From: Escherichia phage ESSI2_ev040
Sequence record: NC_049393.1
Direction: 5' to 3' (one strand)
Length of the DNA: 30,597 nucleotides
Shown here: positions 17,035 through 30,523 of the stretch, one piece after another
How the letters are laid out: every line of letters begins with the position of its first letter
Numbering within the stretch: position 1 is the first letter of the stretch
Made by a program: the position numbers and the translations under genes
Notes under the pieces: model-generated
Database searches by the model: none
What the model was told of the DNA's origin: nothing
The model's input: only the letters and a program-made list of their open reading frames with translations

Positions 17035-18810
17035 ATGGCTAAATACTCTGAAGAATTAAAAGGCGTTGTTCGCGCACTTTATCTGCGCCGCTATACGCCA
17101 AAGGAAATCGCATCTGAATTAAATCTGCCGAATGCGCGGATCGTTTACTACTGGGCGGAGAAATACAGCTGGGCGGATTTGCTCAGTTTTGAAAGCACAG
17201 AGGAAGCAATTGAACGCCGTTACCAGCTGCTGGCCAGCCGCGATAACAAAACCGATCTCGACCTGAAAGAAATGGACATGCTCATTGCTCATGCCACGAA
17301 ACTGCGTGCGCAGAGTAATAAACACAAAGAGAAAATGGCCAGCGGTCAGAATTCAGGGCAAGCAGCTGTGCGGGACAAGAATGACGACGAACCGCGCAGC
17401 AAACGGAAATACAAGAAAAACGATATTTCCTCGCTGACGCAGGAGGACTTTGACGCATGGGCTGAGGAACATCTTTTTGAATATCAGAAACACCTGCGCA
17501 ATAACATTGGCCAGCTTGTCAGGAATATCCTGAAAAGCCGCCAGATCGGTGCAACCTGGTATTTTGCGTTTGAAGCGTTTGAAAACGCGGTGATGACCGG
17601 CGATCCGCAAATCTTTCTGTCAGCATCAAAGGCTCAGGCTGAAGTGTTCCGGTCTTACATCGTGAATATTGCAGAGCAGTATTTCGGTATTACGCTGACC
17701 GGCAACCCGATCCGCTTAAGCAACGGCGCAGAACTGCGTTTTCTCTCCACCAACAAAAACACCGCCCAGTCCTACAGTGGCCACCTGTACTGTGACGAAT
17801 ATTTCTGGGTGCCAAACTTTGCAAAACTTAACGAAGTGGCCAGCGCAATGGCCACACATGACAAGTGGCGCACCACCTATTTTTCAACGCCATCGGCAAA
17901 AACGCACCAGGCGTACCCGTTCTGGACGGGCGATGAGTGGAAACAGGGCAGTAAAAAACGTGCGGCCATTAAATTTCCGTCCTTTAACGAAATGCGTGAC
18001 GGCGGGCGACTCTGCCCGGATGGGCAATGGCGCTACGTCATTACGATGGAAGATGCCATTGCAGGCGGTTTCAACCTGGCAAACATCGAAAAGCTTCGCA
18101 ACCGCTACAACGACGCCACTTTTAACATGCTCTATATGTGCGTGTTCGTTGACAGCAAAGATTCCGTTTTCAGCTTTTCCGACCTGGAAGCCTGCGGCGT
18201 TGAAGTCGACACCTGGCAGGATCACAACCCTGATGCAGCCCGTCCATTCGGTGACAGGGCAGTGTGGGGCGGCTTTGACCCGGCTCGCAGCGGGGATTTG
18301 TCCTGTTTTGTCATCATCGCCCCGCCGATGCTCGCCGTGGAGAAGTTCCGCGTTCTGAAGGTGATTTACTGGAAAGGCATGAACTTCCGGTACCAGGCAA
18401 AACAGATCGAGCAGTTGTTCAAAAAATATAACTTCACTTATCTGGGGGTGGACGTTACCGGCATTGGCCAGGGTGTTTTTGACAACATTCAGCATTTTGC
18501 CATGCGTGTGGCCGTCCCTATTCGTTACGACCTGAACACCAAAAATAAGCTGGTACTGAAAGCGGTGGATGTGGTGGAAAGCCAGCGTATTGAGTGGGAT
18601 AAAAACCTGAAAGAGATCGCGGCCAGCTTTATGTCTGTGCGCCGAACCACCACACAAAGCGGCAACGCCATGACGTTTGTCGCTGACCGCAGCCAGGATA
18701 CCGGCCACGCAGAGGCATTCTGGGCGATTACCCACGGTCTGCATAACGAACCCCTTAACTATGAAAACAAACCGAAATCCCGCTGGGGTGTAAGGAAAGA
18801 GGCAGCATGA
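17035..18810 (+). CDS. P: terminase large (ATPase) subunit, P2 gpP-like
   Basis: 591 aa; P2-like P then Q order; ATGA overlap with the portal gene. Confidence 0.9.
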   Translation: MAKYSEELKGVVRALYLRRYTPKEIASELNLPNARIVYYWAEKYSWADLLSFESTEEAIERRYQLLASRDNKTDLDLKEMDMLIAHATKLRAQSNKHKEKMASGQNSGQAAVRDKNDDEPRSKRKYKKNDISSLTQEDFDAWAEEHLFEYQKHLRNNIGQLVRNILKSRQIGATWYFAFEAFENAVMTGDPQIFLSASKAQAEVFRSYIVNIAEQYFGITLTGNPIRLSNGAELRFLSTNKNTAQSYSGHLYCDEYFWVPNFAKLNEVASAMATHDKWRTTYFSTPSAKTHQAYPFWTGDEWKQGSKKRAAIKFPSFNEMRDGGRLCPDGQWRYVITMEDAIAGGFNLANIEKLRNRYNDATFNMLYMCVFVDSKDSVFSFSDLEACGVEVDTWQDHNPDAARPFGDRAVWGGFDPARSGDLSCFVIIAPPMLAVEKFRVLKVIYWKGMNFRYQAKQIEQLFKKYNFTYLGVDVTGIGQGVFDNIQHFAMRVAVPIRYDLNTKNKLVLKAVDVVESQRIEWDKNLKEIAASFMSVRRTTTQSGNAMTFVADRSQDTGHAEAFWAITHGLHNEPLNYENKPKSRWGVRKEAA

Positions 18811-19868
18811 GTAAAAAGAAACGCTTTGTTAAGCGCGACCAGCGCGGCGACAAATCAAAAAAGATGAGCATTATCACATTCGGCAAACCTGAACCGGTTC
18901 TGACTACCGGCACAGATTACCGTGATATCTGGTACGACAATGCCGCCGATCACTTCACCCAGCCGATTGACCGGCTGGCACTCGCACAACTGATTAATCT
19001 TAACGGTCAGCACGGCGGCATCATTCACGCCCGTAAAAACATGATTGTTTCAGACTACCAGGGGGGCGGGCTTATTCACGACCAGCTGGAAGCGGCAGCG
19101 TTTGACTATATAACCTTTGGGGATATTGCGATTGCCAAAATTCGTAACGGCTGGGGCGATGTGATCGCACTTGAACCCTTGCCCGGTCTGTATATTCGCC
19201 GCCGCAAAGTCAGAGATAACGCGCTGGATAAGCCCGGCGACTACGTGGTGTTACAGGAAGGGGAACCACAGGTATGGCCAGAAGAAGATATTATCTTCAT
19301 CAAAATGTATGACCCGCAACAGCATATCTACGGACTGCCGGACTACATCGGCGGTGTGCATTCCGCGTTACTTAACAGTGAAGCGGTCATTTTCCGACGC
19401 CGCTATTACCACAACGGTGCGCACACTGGCGGTATTCTTTATACCCGCGATCCCAGCATGACGGACGAAATGGAGGAAGAAATTGAACAGCAGCTGCGTG
19501 ACAGCAAAGGGATCGGTAACTTCTCCACCATCCTTGTAAACATTCCTGGTGGAGACGGTGACGCCATCAAATTCATTGAAATGGGGGATATTTCCGCGAA
19601 GGATGAATTTGCCAACATCAAAAACATCAGCGCCCAGGACATTCTGAACGCGCACCGTTTCCCTGCTGGCCTCGCCGGTATTGTTCCGCAGAACACTGCC
19701 GGACTGGGGGATGTTGAAAAGGCTGAACGCATTTACAAGAAAAGCGAAATAGCCCCCATCCAGCGCCGTTTCATGCTGGCCGTTAACAACGATCCCGAAA
19801 TACCGGAAAGGCTACACCTTAACTTTGATTTAAGTTACACAGAATCAACGGATAAGGGTGCGGCATGA
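18807..19868 (+). CDS. Q: portal protein, P2 gpQ-like
   Basis: 353 aa, directly coupled to the terminase large subunit. Confidence 0.9.
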   Translation: MSKKKRFVKRDQRGDKSKKMSIITFGKPEPVLTTGTDYRDIWYDNAADHFTQPIDRLALAQLINLNGQHGGIIHARKNMIVSDYQGGGLIHDQLEAAAFDYITFGDIAIAKIRNGWGDVIALEPLPGLYIRRRKVRDNALDKPGDYVVLQEGEPQVWPEEDIIFIKMYDPQQHIYGLPDYIGGVHSALLNSEAVIFRRRYYHNGAHTGGILYTRDPSMTDEMEEEIEQQLRDSKGIGNFSTILVNIPGGDGDAIKFIEMGDISAKDEFANIKNISAQDILNAHRFPAGLAGIVPQNTAGLGDVEKAERIYKKSEIAPIQRRFMLAVNNDPEIPERLHLNFDLSYTESTDKGAA

Positions 19869-27225: not shown

Positions 27226-28275
27226 ATGGCTATTCGTAAACTTGAAACGGGTAAATGGCTCTGTGAATGCTACCCTTCCGGACGTTCTGGGCGCAGGGTA
27301 CGAAAACAATTTGCAACCAAAGGTGAGGCAATGGCCTTTGAGCGCCACACAATGGATGAAGCCGCGTCTAAACCCTGGCTGGGGGATGTTGTTGATCGCC
27401 GCTCTTTAAAAGACATTGTAAACCTCTGGTATAAACTGCATGGCATATCTCTTACGGCTGGCGAACACGTATATGAAAAACTACTGCTGATCGTGGACGC
27501 ACTAGGAAACCCTCTGGCTACATCGCTAACCCCAAAAATGTTTGCTCATTACCGCGATAAACGCCTAACCGGAGAGATTTATTTCAGCGAAAAATGGAAG
27601 AATGGCGCTAGCCCTGTAACGGTTAATCTTGAGCAAAGTTATTTAAGCGGTGCCTTTAGTGAACTGATTCGCTTGGGTGAATGGCTTCAGCCAAACCCTC
27701 TTGAAAACATGCGAAAATTTACCATTGCTGAAAAGGAAATGGCCTGGCTGACACATGAACAGATTGCTGAACTTCTGTATGACTGCCAGCGTCAGAACAA
27801 GCTGTTGACGCTGGTTGTGAAGATTTGCCTCAGTACAGGGGCAAGGTGGAGAGAGGCCGTCAATCTGACAAGGTCTCAGGTAACGAAGTACCGCATCACT
27901 TTCACCAGAACGAAGGGAAAGAAAAACAGAAGCATCCCTATCAGCAAGGAGCTATATGAAGAGATCACCGTGCTGAAGGGGTTTAAGTTTTTTGATGATT
28001 ACTATTTTCAATTTGCATCAGTGATGGATAAAACTTCCATCATTCTGCCGCGAGGCCAGCTAACGCACGTTCTTCGCCACACCTTTGCTGCTCACTTTAT
28101 GATGTCCGGAGGAAACATACTCGCCCTTCAAAAAATACTGGGGCACCACGATATAAAAATGACTATGCGCTATGCCCACCTCGCGCCAGATCACCTTGAA
28201 ACTGCGTTAAGGTTTAACCCCTTAGCTACTATGCAAAATGGCGACAAAATGGCGGCAGCGGTTGCCACTCCCTAA
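27226..28275 (+). CDS. int: tyrosine integrase (P2/186-type)
   Basis: 349 aa; C-terminal catalytic region with HVLRHTFA and HHDIKMTMRYAHL (conserved His/Arg/Tyr). Confidence 0.9.
   Translation: MAIRKLETGKWLCECYPSGRSGRRVRKQFATKGEAMAFERHTMDEAASKPWLGDVVDRRSLKDIVNLWYKLHGISLTAGEHVYEKLLLIVDALGNPLATSLTPKMFAHYRDKRLTGEIYFSEKWKNGASPVTVNLEQSYLSGAFSELIRLGEWLQPNPLENMRKFTIAEKEMAWLTHEQIAELLYDCQRQNKLLTLVVKICLSTGARWREAVNLTRSQVTKYRITFTRTKGKKNRSIPISKELYEEITVLKGFKFFDDYYFQFASVMDKTSIILPRGQLTHVLRHTFAAHFMMSGGNILALQKILGHHDIKMTMRYAHLAPDHLETALRFNPLATMQNGDKMAAAVATP
28239..28260 (+). repeat. 22-bp direct repeat copy 1 (TGGCGACAAAATGGCGGCAGCG) inside the int 3' end; copy 2 at 28422-28443
   Basis: 21/22 identity between the two copies, seen directly. 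Confidence 0.8.
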
Positions 28276-28337
28276 CCTTTAATACTCCTAACTACTCTTT
28301 TAACTTATTGAGTTTAAAGCAAGTAATTGTTTTTCCT

Positions 28338-28366
28338 AACCCATTTATATAAATGGGTTTTTTGTT
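28338..28366 (+). terminator. rho-independent terminator after int
   Basis: Perfect 22-nt palindrome AACCCATTTATATAAATGGGTT followed by TTTTTTGTT. Confidence 0.7.
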
Positions 28367-28421
28367 GCCTGTTATATTAGTCTCTTAAAACCAACCACTT
28401 ACCCCCTCTCACTAAAGCCAT

Positions 28422-28443
28422 TGGCGACAAAATGGCGACAGCG
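28422..28443 (+). repeat. 22-bp direct repeat copy 2 (TGGCGACAAAATGGCGACAGCG) spanning the Abi_C-like ORF start
   Basis: 21/22 identity to 28239-28260; candidate att core or recombination scar. Confidence 0.8.
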
Positions 28444-29286
28444 TACAAACACGTTGATGGAGTCTATATGGGACGACAAATTCCGCAGCCAGTCATTTCA
28501 GTTTTATCTGACCACATGGCGGCAGTTGAAACACACGCAACCATGAATAGTTTATTCATGTACGCAGACGCTCCAGGGGATGCTCCAGATTTAGCAAAAC
28601 CAGCAAAGGCGCAGGATTGGCTTAGAAGAATCAACAAAGAATGTGATGACCCACTCGCAATTCTTGGTCGATTGATTGAAGGCTATATGGAAGCTGACCT
28701 GCCTAAAGGCAGCGTATTCAGTTGGGAGCAACCTAAGGTTGATTTCATAGAAAAGATGACTGATTTGCTTGGTCGGTACGGCCTGCGGTATCTAACTGGA
28801 GGTCATATTTCTGATGGGGCATCGCTTACTTCGGTTACTCTCAAAGAAGCGATTGGAAAACGCAACATACCTGCTGTTGAAATGGAGTTTTCCAGAGCGC
28901 TTGAAAATATCCACACTGATCCACGAGAAGCTGTCTCCGCAGCTTGTAACATTATGGAATCAACCTTTAAGGTTTACATCGCCGATGAGAAGCTGCCCAC
29001 CCCTGCTAAACAAGATTTGCAGGGACTCTGGAAAGTTGTCCGTGAATCCTTGGGGCTAGATACTAAAGCCGTTGAAGATGAAGACCTTAAACGTATTTTG
29101 AGTGGCTTATATTCGTTAACTGATGGGATCGGAGCTTTAAGAACTCATGCAAGTTCTGCCCATGGAGCCGGGAGAAAGATATATAACTTAAAACCTCGCC
29201 ATGCTCGGTTAGCTATAAATGCAGCACATACGTTAACTATGTATATCCTTGAATCTTGGGATGAGCAGAAACAAAAGAAATCTTAA
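28432..29286 (+). CDS. Abi_C-domain-like protein (putative abortive infection / exclusion protein); alternative start ATG 28468 has a GGAG RBS
   Basis: C-terminal LRTHASSAHGAG...KPRHARLAINAAHTLTMYILE resembles the Abi_C domain as recalled; AT-richer than the phage core; own terminator downstream. Confidence 0.45.
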   Translation: MATAYKHVDGVYMGRQIPQPVISVLSDHMAAVETHATMNSLFMYADAPGDAPDLAKPAKAQDWLRRINKECDDPLAILGRLIEGYMEADLPKGSVFSWEQPKVDFIEKMTDLLGRYGLRYLTGGHISDGASLTSVTLKEAIGKRNIPAVEMEFSRALENIHTDPREAVSAACNIMESTFKVYIADEKLPTPAKQDLQGLWKVVRESLGLDTKAVEDEDLKRILSGLYSLTDGIGALRTHASSAHGAGRKIYNLKPRHARLAINAAHTLTMYILESWDEQKQKKS

Positions 29287-29341
29287 CTACATGTTAGACA
29301 ACATGTTTTTCAGTTTTGAAATTATGTCATCTTCTATGAAT

Positions 29342-29376
29342 CCCGCGCCAGTTCTCGCTTTGCGGGTTTTTCTTTG
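29342..29376 (+). terminator. putative rho-independent terminator after the Abi_C-like gene
   Basis: GC stem CCCGC(G)...(T)GCGGG followed by TTTTTCTTTGTT. Confidence 0.5.
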
Positions 29377-29632
29377 TTCGCCTCACCTCAAGATTTTGAT
29401 CTTCTGGCCTAACATAAAATAAATAATACCATTATTTATCAGATAGTTATTATTACTTATCGATCCTCCGTAGATCTATAAAAATGGAAAAAGCTGAAAT
29501 TCTTTTCAATCTTTTCAGTTACAGTTCTCCAGCAAGCCTCCAGCAGTGGCGCGGCCTAGCGATACCGTTTGTAGAAAAATAAAACTGAAAAAATTTCCAG
29601 ATCCAGAAACCGCAGGCGGGTGCCAGAGTAGA

Positions 29633-29665
29633 TCGTCGGCAGCGTCAGATGTGTATAAGAGACAG
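29633..29665 (+). other. exact Illumina Nextera Read-1 transposase adapter (TCGTCGGCAGCGTCAGATGTGTATAAGAGACAG) embedded in the sequence
   Basis: 33/33 nt match to the widely used adapter, including the synthetic Tn5 mosaic end; no second inverted end or transposase nearby. Confidence 0.9.
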
Positions 29666-29968
29666 GTGTAGCGCCGTTTTTGTCTGCGAAAGATTTATTT
29701 CTCTATCATATGACCATACCAGCGTAACGCCACGCTTCGGATCTTTTACACTTGGTGCGCGGGATTGGGTTTGTTACTAAAGGGGTTAAAATGCGTCTGG
29801 CTACGTCTATGACGATGTGAGAAATAGATTTATGACAGTAACCCAACTAAATCATTTTGGATGAAGTAGTCCACTATCAGATCGAACCACATAACCTAGT
29901 GTTGCTAGCAGAAAATCAGACCATTCCCATGTTACGATAATCGTCAGGATTATTGGGACGGACAATTT

Positions 29969-30523
29969 ATGAGCAGCAGCAAAAAAACGCACTACGAGGA
30001 AATGAAGCAGTTATTGTGCGCGGACATACTGAGTAACAGTAAAAAATTCTCATGGAGAAGAATCATACTACGTTGCTGGAGACAGCCCGGATACCGGTTC
30101 ATGTGTTGGTGGAGAATAGCGAATTGCCTTTACTGCCAGGGTGGGAGAGCAAGAGTGAAATGGGCGCGAAGAATCCACCGGAGACTTGTTTCAAAATATA
30201 ATACTGATATTGGGTTGGGGGCACAGATCGGGGAAAAATTCAAAATTTATCACTTCGTTGGAATAGTCATTTGTCCCCAGGCTGTGATTGGTAAGAATGT
30301 GCGTATCCGTCAAAACATAACAATTGGATTAAAAACAGTTGAGGGAATCAAAGCCATCAGGATCGGAGACAATGTCGAGATTGGTGCAAATTCGTGCATC
30401 ATCGGTGATGACCTGACTATTGGTGATAACGTGACAATTGGCGCTATGTCATTTGTTAACAGAGACGTCCCCGCCAATAGCGTTTATATAACCCGCAAAA
30501 GCCATACAATCACCACTGCCTGA
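29969..30523 (+). CDS. hexapeptide-repeat acetyltransferase (left-handed beta-helix family, WbbJ/WcaB-like)
   Basis: 184 aa; repeated [LIV]-G-x-x-x-x hexapeptide units (IGKNVRI, IGDNVEIG, IGDNVTIG); AT-rich, outside the phage core. Confidence 0.6.
   Translation: MSSSKKTHYEEMKQLLCADILSNSKKFSWRRIILRCWRQPGYRFMCWWRIANCLYCQGGRARVKWARRIHRRLVSKYNTDIGLGAQIGEKFKIYHFVGIVICPQAVIGKNVRIRQNITIGLKTVEGIKAIRIGDNVEIGANSCIIGDDLTIGDNVTIGAMSFVNRDVPANSVYITRKSHTITTA

Follow-up and report, generated by a model that had tools for sequence, protein, structure and literature searches.

Adapter contamination of phage genome records is a known phenomenon, found mostly at record ends and in some cases internally, as in Acinetobacter phage TAC1, Escherichia phage vB_EcoM_WFK, and P2_2H1. 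Hyperactive Tn5 tools work with the 19-nt mosaic end, which mini-Tn5/EZ-Tn5 insertions have in common with the locus described here. Cohesive-end (cos) sequences have been defined experimentally in phages P2 (19 nt, GGCGAGGCGGGGAAAGCAC) and lambda (12 nt, GGGCGGCGACCT), and contigs assembled from virion DNA stop inside both of them. In the genome of Escherichia phage ESSI2_ev040 (NC_049393.1), whose full 30,597-nt sequence we refer to as the window, we find a sequencing adapter that owes its internal place to the circular permutation of the sequence, and whose position is informative rather than random, as it probably lies inside the cohesive-end sequence of the phage. The site resembles the P2 and lambda cos in that virion-derived contigs stop within it, the P2 record and the record of Cronobacter phage ESSI-2 both carry a short terminal repeat, and a conserved cis element is a further likeness. 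On the other hand, the repeat is 15 nt long rather than 19 or 12, has no similarity to the cos of P2/186, and, in contrast to P2, is placed between attP-proximal cargo and a baseplate-spike-like gene rather than next to the portal gene.

The window is the genome of a P2-like phage of the genus Quadragintavirus, family Peduoviridae, as established by its gene order and by its 98.7% identity over 25 kb to ESSI2_ev015 (ESSI2_ev129 is 95.6% identical over 25 kb). Four ESSI-2-like isolates were reported among infant-gut coliphages by Mathieu et al. 2020 (PMC6969025), and ESSI2_ev040 is the third species in the taxonomy of Quadragintavirus. An exact copy of the Nextera Read-1 33-mer, TCGTCGGCAGCGTCAGATGTGTATAAGAGACAG, lies on the plus strand at 29633-29665, and the earlier note was right to equate it with this adapter and its synthetic mosaic end; it is the single exact copy in the whole window, where a search allowing up to 3 mismatches found no other. 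The same note's view that a chance match is implausible is borne out by the absence of the 33-mer from dinucleotide shuffles of the window (0 of 100) and of a second site at up to 3 mismatches. The foreign block extends 9 bases further to the left than the 33-mer flagged at first—positions 29624-29665 (42 nt, plus strand) are exactly the 3' 42 nt of the Nextera i5.4 library adapter (P5...CTACAC-AGAGTAGA-TCGTCGGCAGCGTC-AGATGTGTATAAGAGACAG), the primer sequence of which, with P5 ending in ...CTACAC, is given in PMC12702366.

This i5-side residue, an exact match to P5-i5.4-A14-ME, can be divided on the plus strand into four parts. The C at position 29624 closes the P5 flow-cell sequence (P5 ends in ...CTACAC, and the clipping rule described below leaves one P5 base), and the original linear contig probably began with it. 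This base is followed by the i5 sample index AGAGTAGA at 29625-29632 (Nextera i5 no. 4, N504/S504, by primer match), by A14, the Read-1 sequencing-primer part TCGTCGGCAGCGTC, at 29633-29646 (an exact match directly 5' of the mosaic end), and by the 19-nt Tn5 mosaic end AGATGTGTATAAGAGACAG at 29647-29665 (0 mismatches, unique in the window), the final G of which coincides with natural base 9 of a 15-mer that we regard as the candidate cos. When P5 was sought upstream of the index, its last base C alone was present, because the published read clipping removes the remainder; elsewhere in the window, no P5, P7, Read-2 adapter, or TruSeq sequence was found. Every component of an i5-side Nextera adapter is thus in place—mosaic end, Read-1 primer, a valid 8-nt index with the P5 end, and a block that is missing from independent assemblies—and the 33-mer is a sequencing-library artefact, a data-cleaning error rather than a biological feature.

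It had been suggested in the earlier note that the sequences on either side of the adapter may not be contiguous in the real genome, and that other assemblies be searched for the junction. Five independent assemblies of the same phage (L015-L019, three from ENA and two from Logan) carry flanks identical to those of the window and read ...CCGCAGGCGGGTGCGGTGTAGCGCCG... without the adapter, and the block is also missing from a sixth contig, L020. By BLAST, window 28353-29623 corresponds to positions 1426-2696 of ENA contig L015 at 100% identity, and the window from 29665 onward to L015 from 2697 onward at 99.95% identity; window bases 29623 and 29665 are in this way matched to the abutting L015 bases 2696|2697. 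The net excess in the window is exactly 41 bases (29624-29664), with the last G of the mosaic end replacing one natural G. The site is read through by 14 related sequences (the five same-phage assemblies, eight IMG/VR contigs, and one E. coli prophage) and likewise by a Yersinia phage, and an exact IMG/VR search for both adapter junctions of the window returned no match. Because independent assemblies cross the site uninterrupted, with abutting coordinates, the flanks are, judging from these sequences, contiguous in the replicating/integrated phage. For the prophage or circular form, the suggested discontinuity was therefore mistaken, and the proposed search, which recovered the same flanks without the block, rules out both a real insertion and a mis-join of unrelated DNA. 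In the packaged virion, by contrast, the flanks probably lie at opposite termini of the linear chromosome, with the adapter inside cos.

Three sister records, those of ev015, ev129, and ev239 (Evevirus), are of the same genome type and library chemistry as the window and bear adapter remnants within the same 15 nt. Whereas these records start and end at the candidate cos, with their adapters terminal, the window starts approximately 930 bp further on and its adapter is internal. The ev015 record opens on the left with a P5 remnant, the index GCGTAAGA (S517; PMC7770539), and the adapter, which runs into GTAG..., and closes on the right with ...GCGGGTGC, the same base as the left flank in the window. 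The ev129 record opens with AC, AGAGTAGA, and the adapter followed by GTAG..., and closes with ...GCAGGCG followed by the reverse-complement adapter. The i5 index AGAGTAGA is common to ev129 and the window, while that of ev015 differs, and in both sister records the adapter joins 2 nt further in (GTAG...) than it does in the window. The right end of ev239 reads ...GCGGGGGC, ending on the homologous base at cos position 8, and continues into the full Read-2 adapter, i7, P7, and poly-A. Since the ends of all three records carry adapter remnants, they are true contig ends rather than chosen rotation points. The ev239 record (LR597637.1) has a further peculiarity, in that its positions 1-123 are an exact copy of its own positions 5096-5218 in the tail-fibre region; the copied 123 nt are fused to the left end of cos via a GGTG microhomology, and the adapter-bearing 3' end occupies 29090-29203.

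Phages with experimentally known cos from the study of Mathieu et al. 2020 provided positive controls. The Lambda_4C10 record (LR595861.1) starts at position 4 of GGGCGGCGACCT and ends at position 3 of it, with the adapter following at the end, and the P2_2H1 record (LR595870.1 / NC_049386, Peduovirus) carries a terminal adapter at 1-31 whose junction falls within the P2 cos, at position 10 of GGCGAGGCGGGGAAAGCAC. Another lambda record, Lambda_ev207 (LR597636.1), starts with CTACAC, ACTGCATA (i5.6), and the adapter. P2_2H1 also contains, at 1293-1329, a second, bare 33-nt adapter plus GG, with no index, lying between contiguous terminase sequence. This insert is 36 nt and in frame, and the annotated large terminase is therefore 12 codons too long; as this adapter is built unlike that of the window, it implies a second route to internal adapters. 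More broadly, a search with the adapter region matched 26 phage records, and most of the matches listed cover the adapter alone.

The natural junction sequence split by the adapter block is the 15-mer GCGGGTGCGGTGTAG, composed of GCGGGTGC, G, and GTGTAG. Its positions 1-8, GCGGGTGC, are found at 29616-29623 on the plus strand and would form the right terminus of the contig or virion DNA, as the record ends of ESSI-2, ev015, and ev239 indicate; its positions 10-15, GTGTAG, are found at 29666-29671 on the plus strand and would form the left terminus, as indicated by the ESSI-2 record and the starts of the sister records. Around the 15-mer, approximately 80 nt of natural sequence make up a putative conserved cos region, interrupted by the adapter (29580-29700, assigned to neither strand), in which column conservation across 11 relatives from 3 genera reaches a local maximum of 0.93-0.97, compared with 0.4-0.7 in the cargo regions on either side. 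Cronobacter phage ESSI-2 was sequenced independently, and its record carries GCGGGTGCGGTGTAG at both ends, the same style of deposition as that of the P2 record with its 19-mer cos at both ends, and the ESSI-2 15-mer also contains the contig ends of four virion-derived assemblies. The adapter thus probably sits inside cos, at what would be the physical ends of the packaged DNA. This assignment is based on record ends and conservation because homology to known cos is lacking—neither the P2 nor the 186 cos gave a significant alignment to the window, and the best window 19-mers, with 4-6 mismatches, are located elsewhere. A search of one literature collection found no account of ESSI-2 cohesive ends.

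The portal gene (18807-19868) is approximately 10 kb from the candidate cos, unlike in P2, and the terminase gene is also approximately 10 kb away. A P2-style cos beside the portal gene was considered and set aside as unlikely, there being little non-coding space at that position and no contig ends that map there. We lean towards the reading, which we rate as somewhat better than evenly balanced, that Quadragintavirus/ESSI-2-like phages have a 15-nt cohesive end, GCGGGTGCGGTGTAG, unrelated to the P2 cos, and that the adapter remnant accurately marks where the virion DNA ends; the cos would then lie between the attP-proximal cargo genes and the baseplate-spike gene and not beside the portal gene. 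One further contig, L020 (Logan ERR12450741_3709, from an unrelated run), is 2.5 kb long and starts 6 nt upstream of the 15-mer (CCGCAG|GCGGGTGCGGTGTAG); it may be another assembly that stops at a virion terminus.

The structure of the block is consistent with the read processing described for these isolates. According to the methods of PMC6969025, read 1 was clipped with CTGTCTCTTATACACATCTCCGAGCCCACGAGAC and read 2 only with TGTAGATCTCGGTGGTCGCCGTATCATTAAA, such that read 2 was clipped solely from TGTAGATCTCGG... onward, and assembly was performed with SPAdes in meta mode. A read-2 read-through consists of the insert followed by CTGTCTCTTATACACATCT, GACGCTGCCGACGA, TCTACTCT, and GTGTAGATCTCGG..., and clipping at TGTAGATC leaves ...TCTACTCTG; the reverse complement of the clipped remainder is CAGAGTAGATCGTCGGCAGCGTCAGATGTGTATAAGAGACAG, which equals window 29624-29665 base for base. 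Position 29624 is the furthest reach of any clipped read, and is therefore a contig terminus.

Very probably, then, an untrimmed Nextera adapter remained at the cos ends of a linear contig, which was subsequently circularised or re-originated into the deposited genome. Virion DNA of the P2-like cos phage (Quadragintavirus, ESSI-2-like) would have been tagmented and sequenced, and, with packaged DNA stopping at cos, the assembler would have had no genomic reads at the termini. At the left end, the assembly would have run into read-through adapter (mosaic end, A14, i5 index, and one P5 base), and this stretch would have escaped removal since the clipping of read 2 began only at the P5 part; at the right end, read-1 read-through would have been cleanly clipped at position 8 of the 15-mer (29623), as in ev015. 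The resulting linear contig (adapter and GTGTAG ... GCGGGTGC) would then have been treated as circular and given a new origin, with the contig end placed before the adapter-bearing start, and the outcome would be an apparent 41-nt "insertion" between naturally adjacent bases inside cos. The origin of the window differs from that of the ev015 and ev129 records, which start at cos; this counts against the account to some degree and leaves the re-origination an inference. The join was probably made by post-assembly circularisation or rotation.

The positions of the adapters relative to cos were also compared with the geometry of a single Tn5 insertion (a 9-bp stagger, with a right-going start at p and a left-going end at p+8), and this was rejected as the observed pairs do not fit. 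The right-end (q) and left-end (p) joins are q=8/p=10 in the window, 8/12 in ev015, 3/12 in ev129, and 3/4 in lambda, with p=10 in P2_2H1 (left end only), and they likewise fit no fixed distance from the boundary between single strand and duplex at the overhang. All of the lambda, P2, and ESSI-2-like adapter leftovers examined lie inside the overhang sequence, which hints that annealed, nicked cos duplexes are ready targets for Tn5 insertion; that the adapters came to lie inside the overhang via tagmentation of such annealed, nicked ends is a plausible guess.

Other routes to the same structure deserve consideration, and the closest is one in which the circular path through the adapter arose within the assembler from rare chimeric molecules or reads bridging 29623/29624, with no manual joining. 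PMC6969025 mentions "repeats at the contig ends," that is, circular-looking SPAdes contigs, physical ends do spawn chimeras in this dataset (as in the tail-fibre copy fused at cos in ev239), and the bare adapter embedded in the terminase sequence of P2_2H1 might be taken in the same sense. The block, however, starts exactly at the bioinformatic clip point with a single P5 base; in a chimera the whole of P5 would stand left of the index, and since clipping discards everything past that point, no bridging read would remain. The orientation of the adapter argues in the same direction, since a forward adapter after the right end cannot be produced by ordinary read-through, and in the de Bruijn graph terminal adapters are reverse complements that come to a dead end. 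We therefore regard this route as improbable, and see only a small chance that the left junction GCGGGTGC|CAGAGTAGA was made in the assembler from a few chimeric reads and not by later rotation. Post-assembly joining of a linear contig predicts that no read contains GGGTGCCAGAGTAGA, whereas reads bridging the left junction would favour the chimera.

Less likely still is that the contig was broken arbitrarily, at a Tn5 hot spot or coverage gap rather than at the genome end, and that the shared record ends reflect alignment to the start of the ESSI-2 reference. The authors did set nt 1 relative to reference genomes (PMC6969025), and the site, with no similarity to the P2/186 cos, is at an unusual place far from the terminase and portal genes. 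Against this, the ends of ev015, ev129, and ev239 bear remnants of P5, index, P7, and poly-A; the breaks fall in one and the same 15 nt in libraries that carry three distinct indices; the independently deposited ESSI-2 genome has its 15-nt terminal repeat exactly there; the lambda and P2 controls break inside experimentally known cos; and the site is a local maximum of conservation. As for the idea that the phage genome was really engineered, by a mini-Tn5 or an in vitro transposon, the mosaic end is indeed that of hyperactive Tn5 tools, but every other defining feature fails, and we rejected this possibility as vanishingly improbable. The 30.6-kb window has one mosaic-end-like site, with no second one at up to 4 mismatches; no 9-bp target-site duplication or other direct repeat flanks the block, where one natural base is instead replaced; and no cargo, marker, or transposase lies between ends, the entire block being 42 nt. 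Mini-Tn5/EZ-Tn5 insertions differ from the window on each of these points, and also in that the mosaic end of the window stands beside sequencing-specific sequence, being preceded by the sequencing primer, a sample index, and a P5 base. The block is moreover missing from the five other assemblies of the same phage, and an insertion here would interrupt the packaging site. The earlier note's statement that this is not a real transposon is thus upheld by the single end and the lack of target duplication, transposase, or cargo; of the two origins that it proposed, assembly artefact or engineered insertion, the artefact stands, whereas the engineered insertion is contradicted by the index and P5 base, by the cut at the published clip point, and by the five same-phage assemblies.

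The genes around the site place it within the phage and prophage maps. The window is a circular permutation of the whole genome, and its end-to-start join is continuous in L009 and L015. A tyrosine integrase gene (27226-28275, plus strand; Int_N and Phage_integrase matches) is followed downstream by the prophage boundary on the attP side, near 28353 and within 28276-28431 (L015 1282-1426). Identity to the integrated prophage L015 starts at window position 28353, next to a ybjL-like host gene, and as the window is uninterrupted across this position, it represents the excised or virion form. In the integrated form, the order is the ybjL-like host gene, att, the Abi_C gene, the adapter/cos site, the acetyltransferase gene, and the baseplate-spike-like gene. 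The host flank gene, a ybjL-like aspartate:alanine antiporter, is approximately 82% identical to E. coli ybjL, and the natural host is therefore probably another enterobacterial genus and not E. coli, which agrees with the authors' remarks on ESSI-2-like phages (PMC6969025).

Both flanking genes were correctly named in the earlier note. To the left, between attP and the candidate cos, is an Abi_C-domain cargo gene (28468-29286, plus strand; PF14355, E 4.6e-21); a look-up of its 284-aa reading came back empty, as other assemblies call the gene at 272 aa. To the right, just inside the left genome end, is a hexapeptide-repeat acetyltransferase cargo gene (29969-30523, plus strand; PF00132, E 1.2e-10), the identical protein of which occurs on 16 other contigs. 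Among 5,426 complete E. coli genomes, no near match to either cargo region turned up. The cargo beside cos differs between the window, with Abi_C and a 184-aa acetyltransferase, and the sister records; at the same positions, ev129 carries a serine acetyltransferase and ev239 a larger acetyltransferase. A 567-aa gene across the window origin (15-1718, minus strand) matches Gp5_C and Phage_base_V weakly, which suggests a baseplate hub or spike; the sister records annotate it simply as "putative phage gene." A shortened relative in E. coli Combat13F7 (NZ_CP019245.1 77327-83497) is without the tail and head modules between, such that the conserved cos region and a spike-like 579-aa gene directly adjoin fil, cII, and cI; it may be what a deletion left behind, or a satellite-like element that bears cos.

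For the deposited genome, these results mean that 42 synthetic bases (29624-29665) should be removed and one G restored, a net excess of 41 that leaves a true genome of approximately 30,556 bp. The sister records, RefSeq entries included, bear the same contamination, and records of this kind will continue to be picked up in searches for transposon ends, repeats, or "engineered" DNA. If the adapter remnant does mark virion termini accurately, cos sites might be found by mining public phage records for leftover Nextera sequence. For this phage group, the artefact pinpoints the probable cos, giving a likely cos location for Quadragintavirus, and shows that the Abi_C and acetyltransferase cargo genes flank the genome ends.
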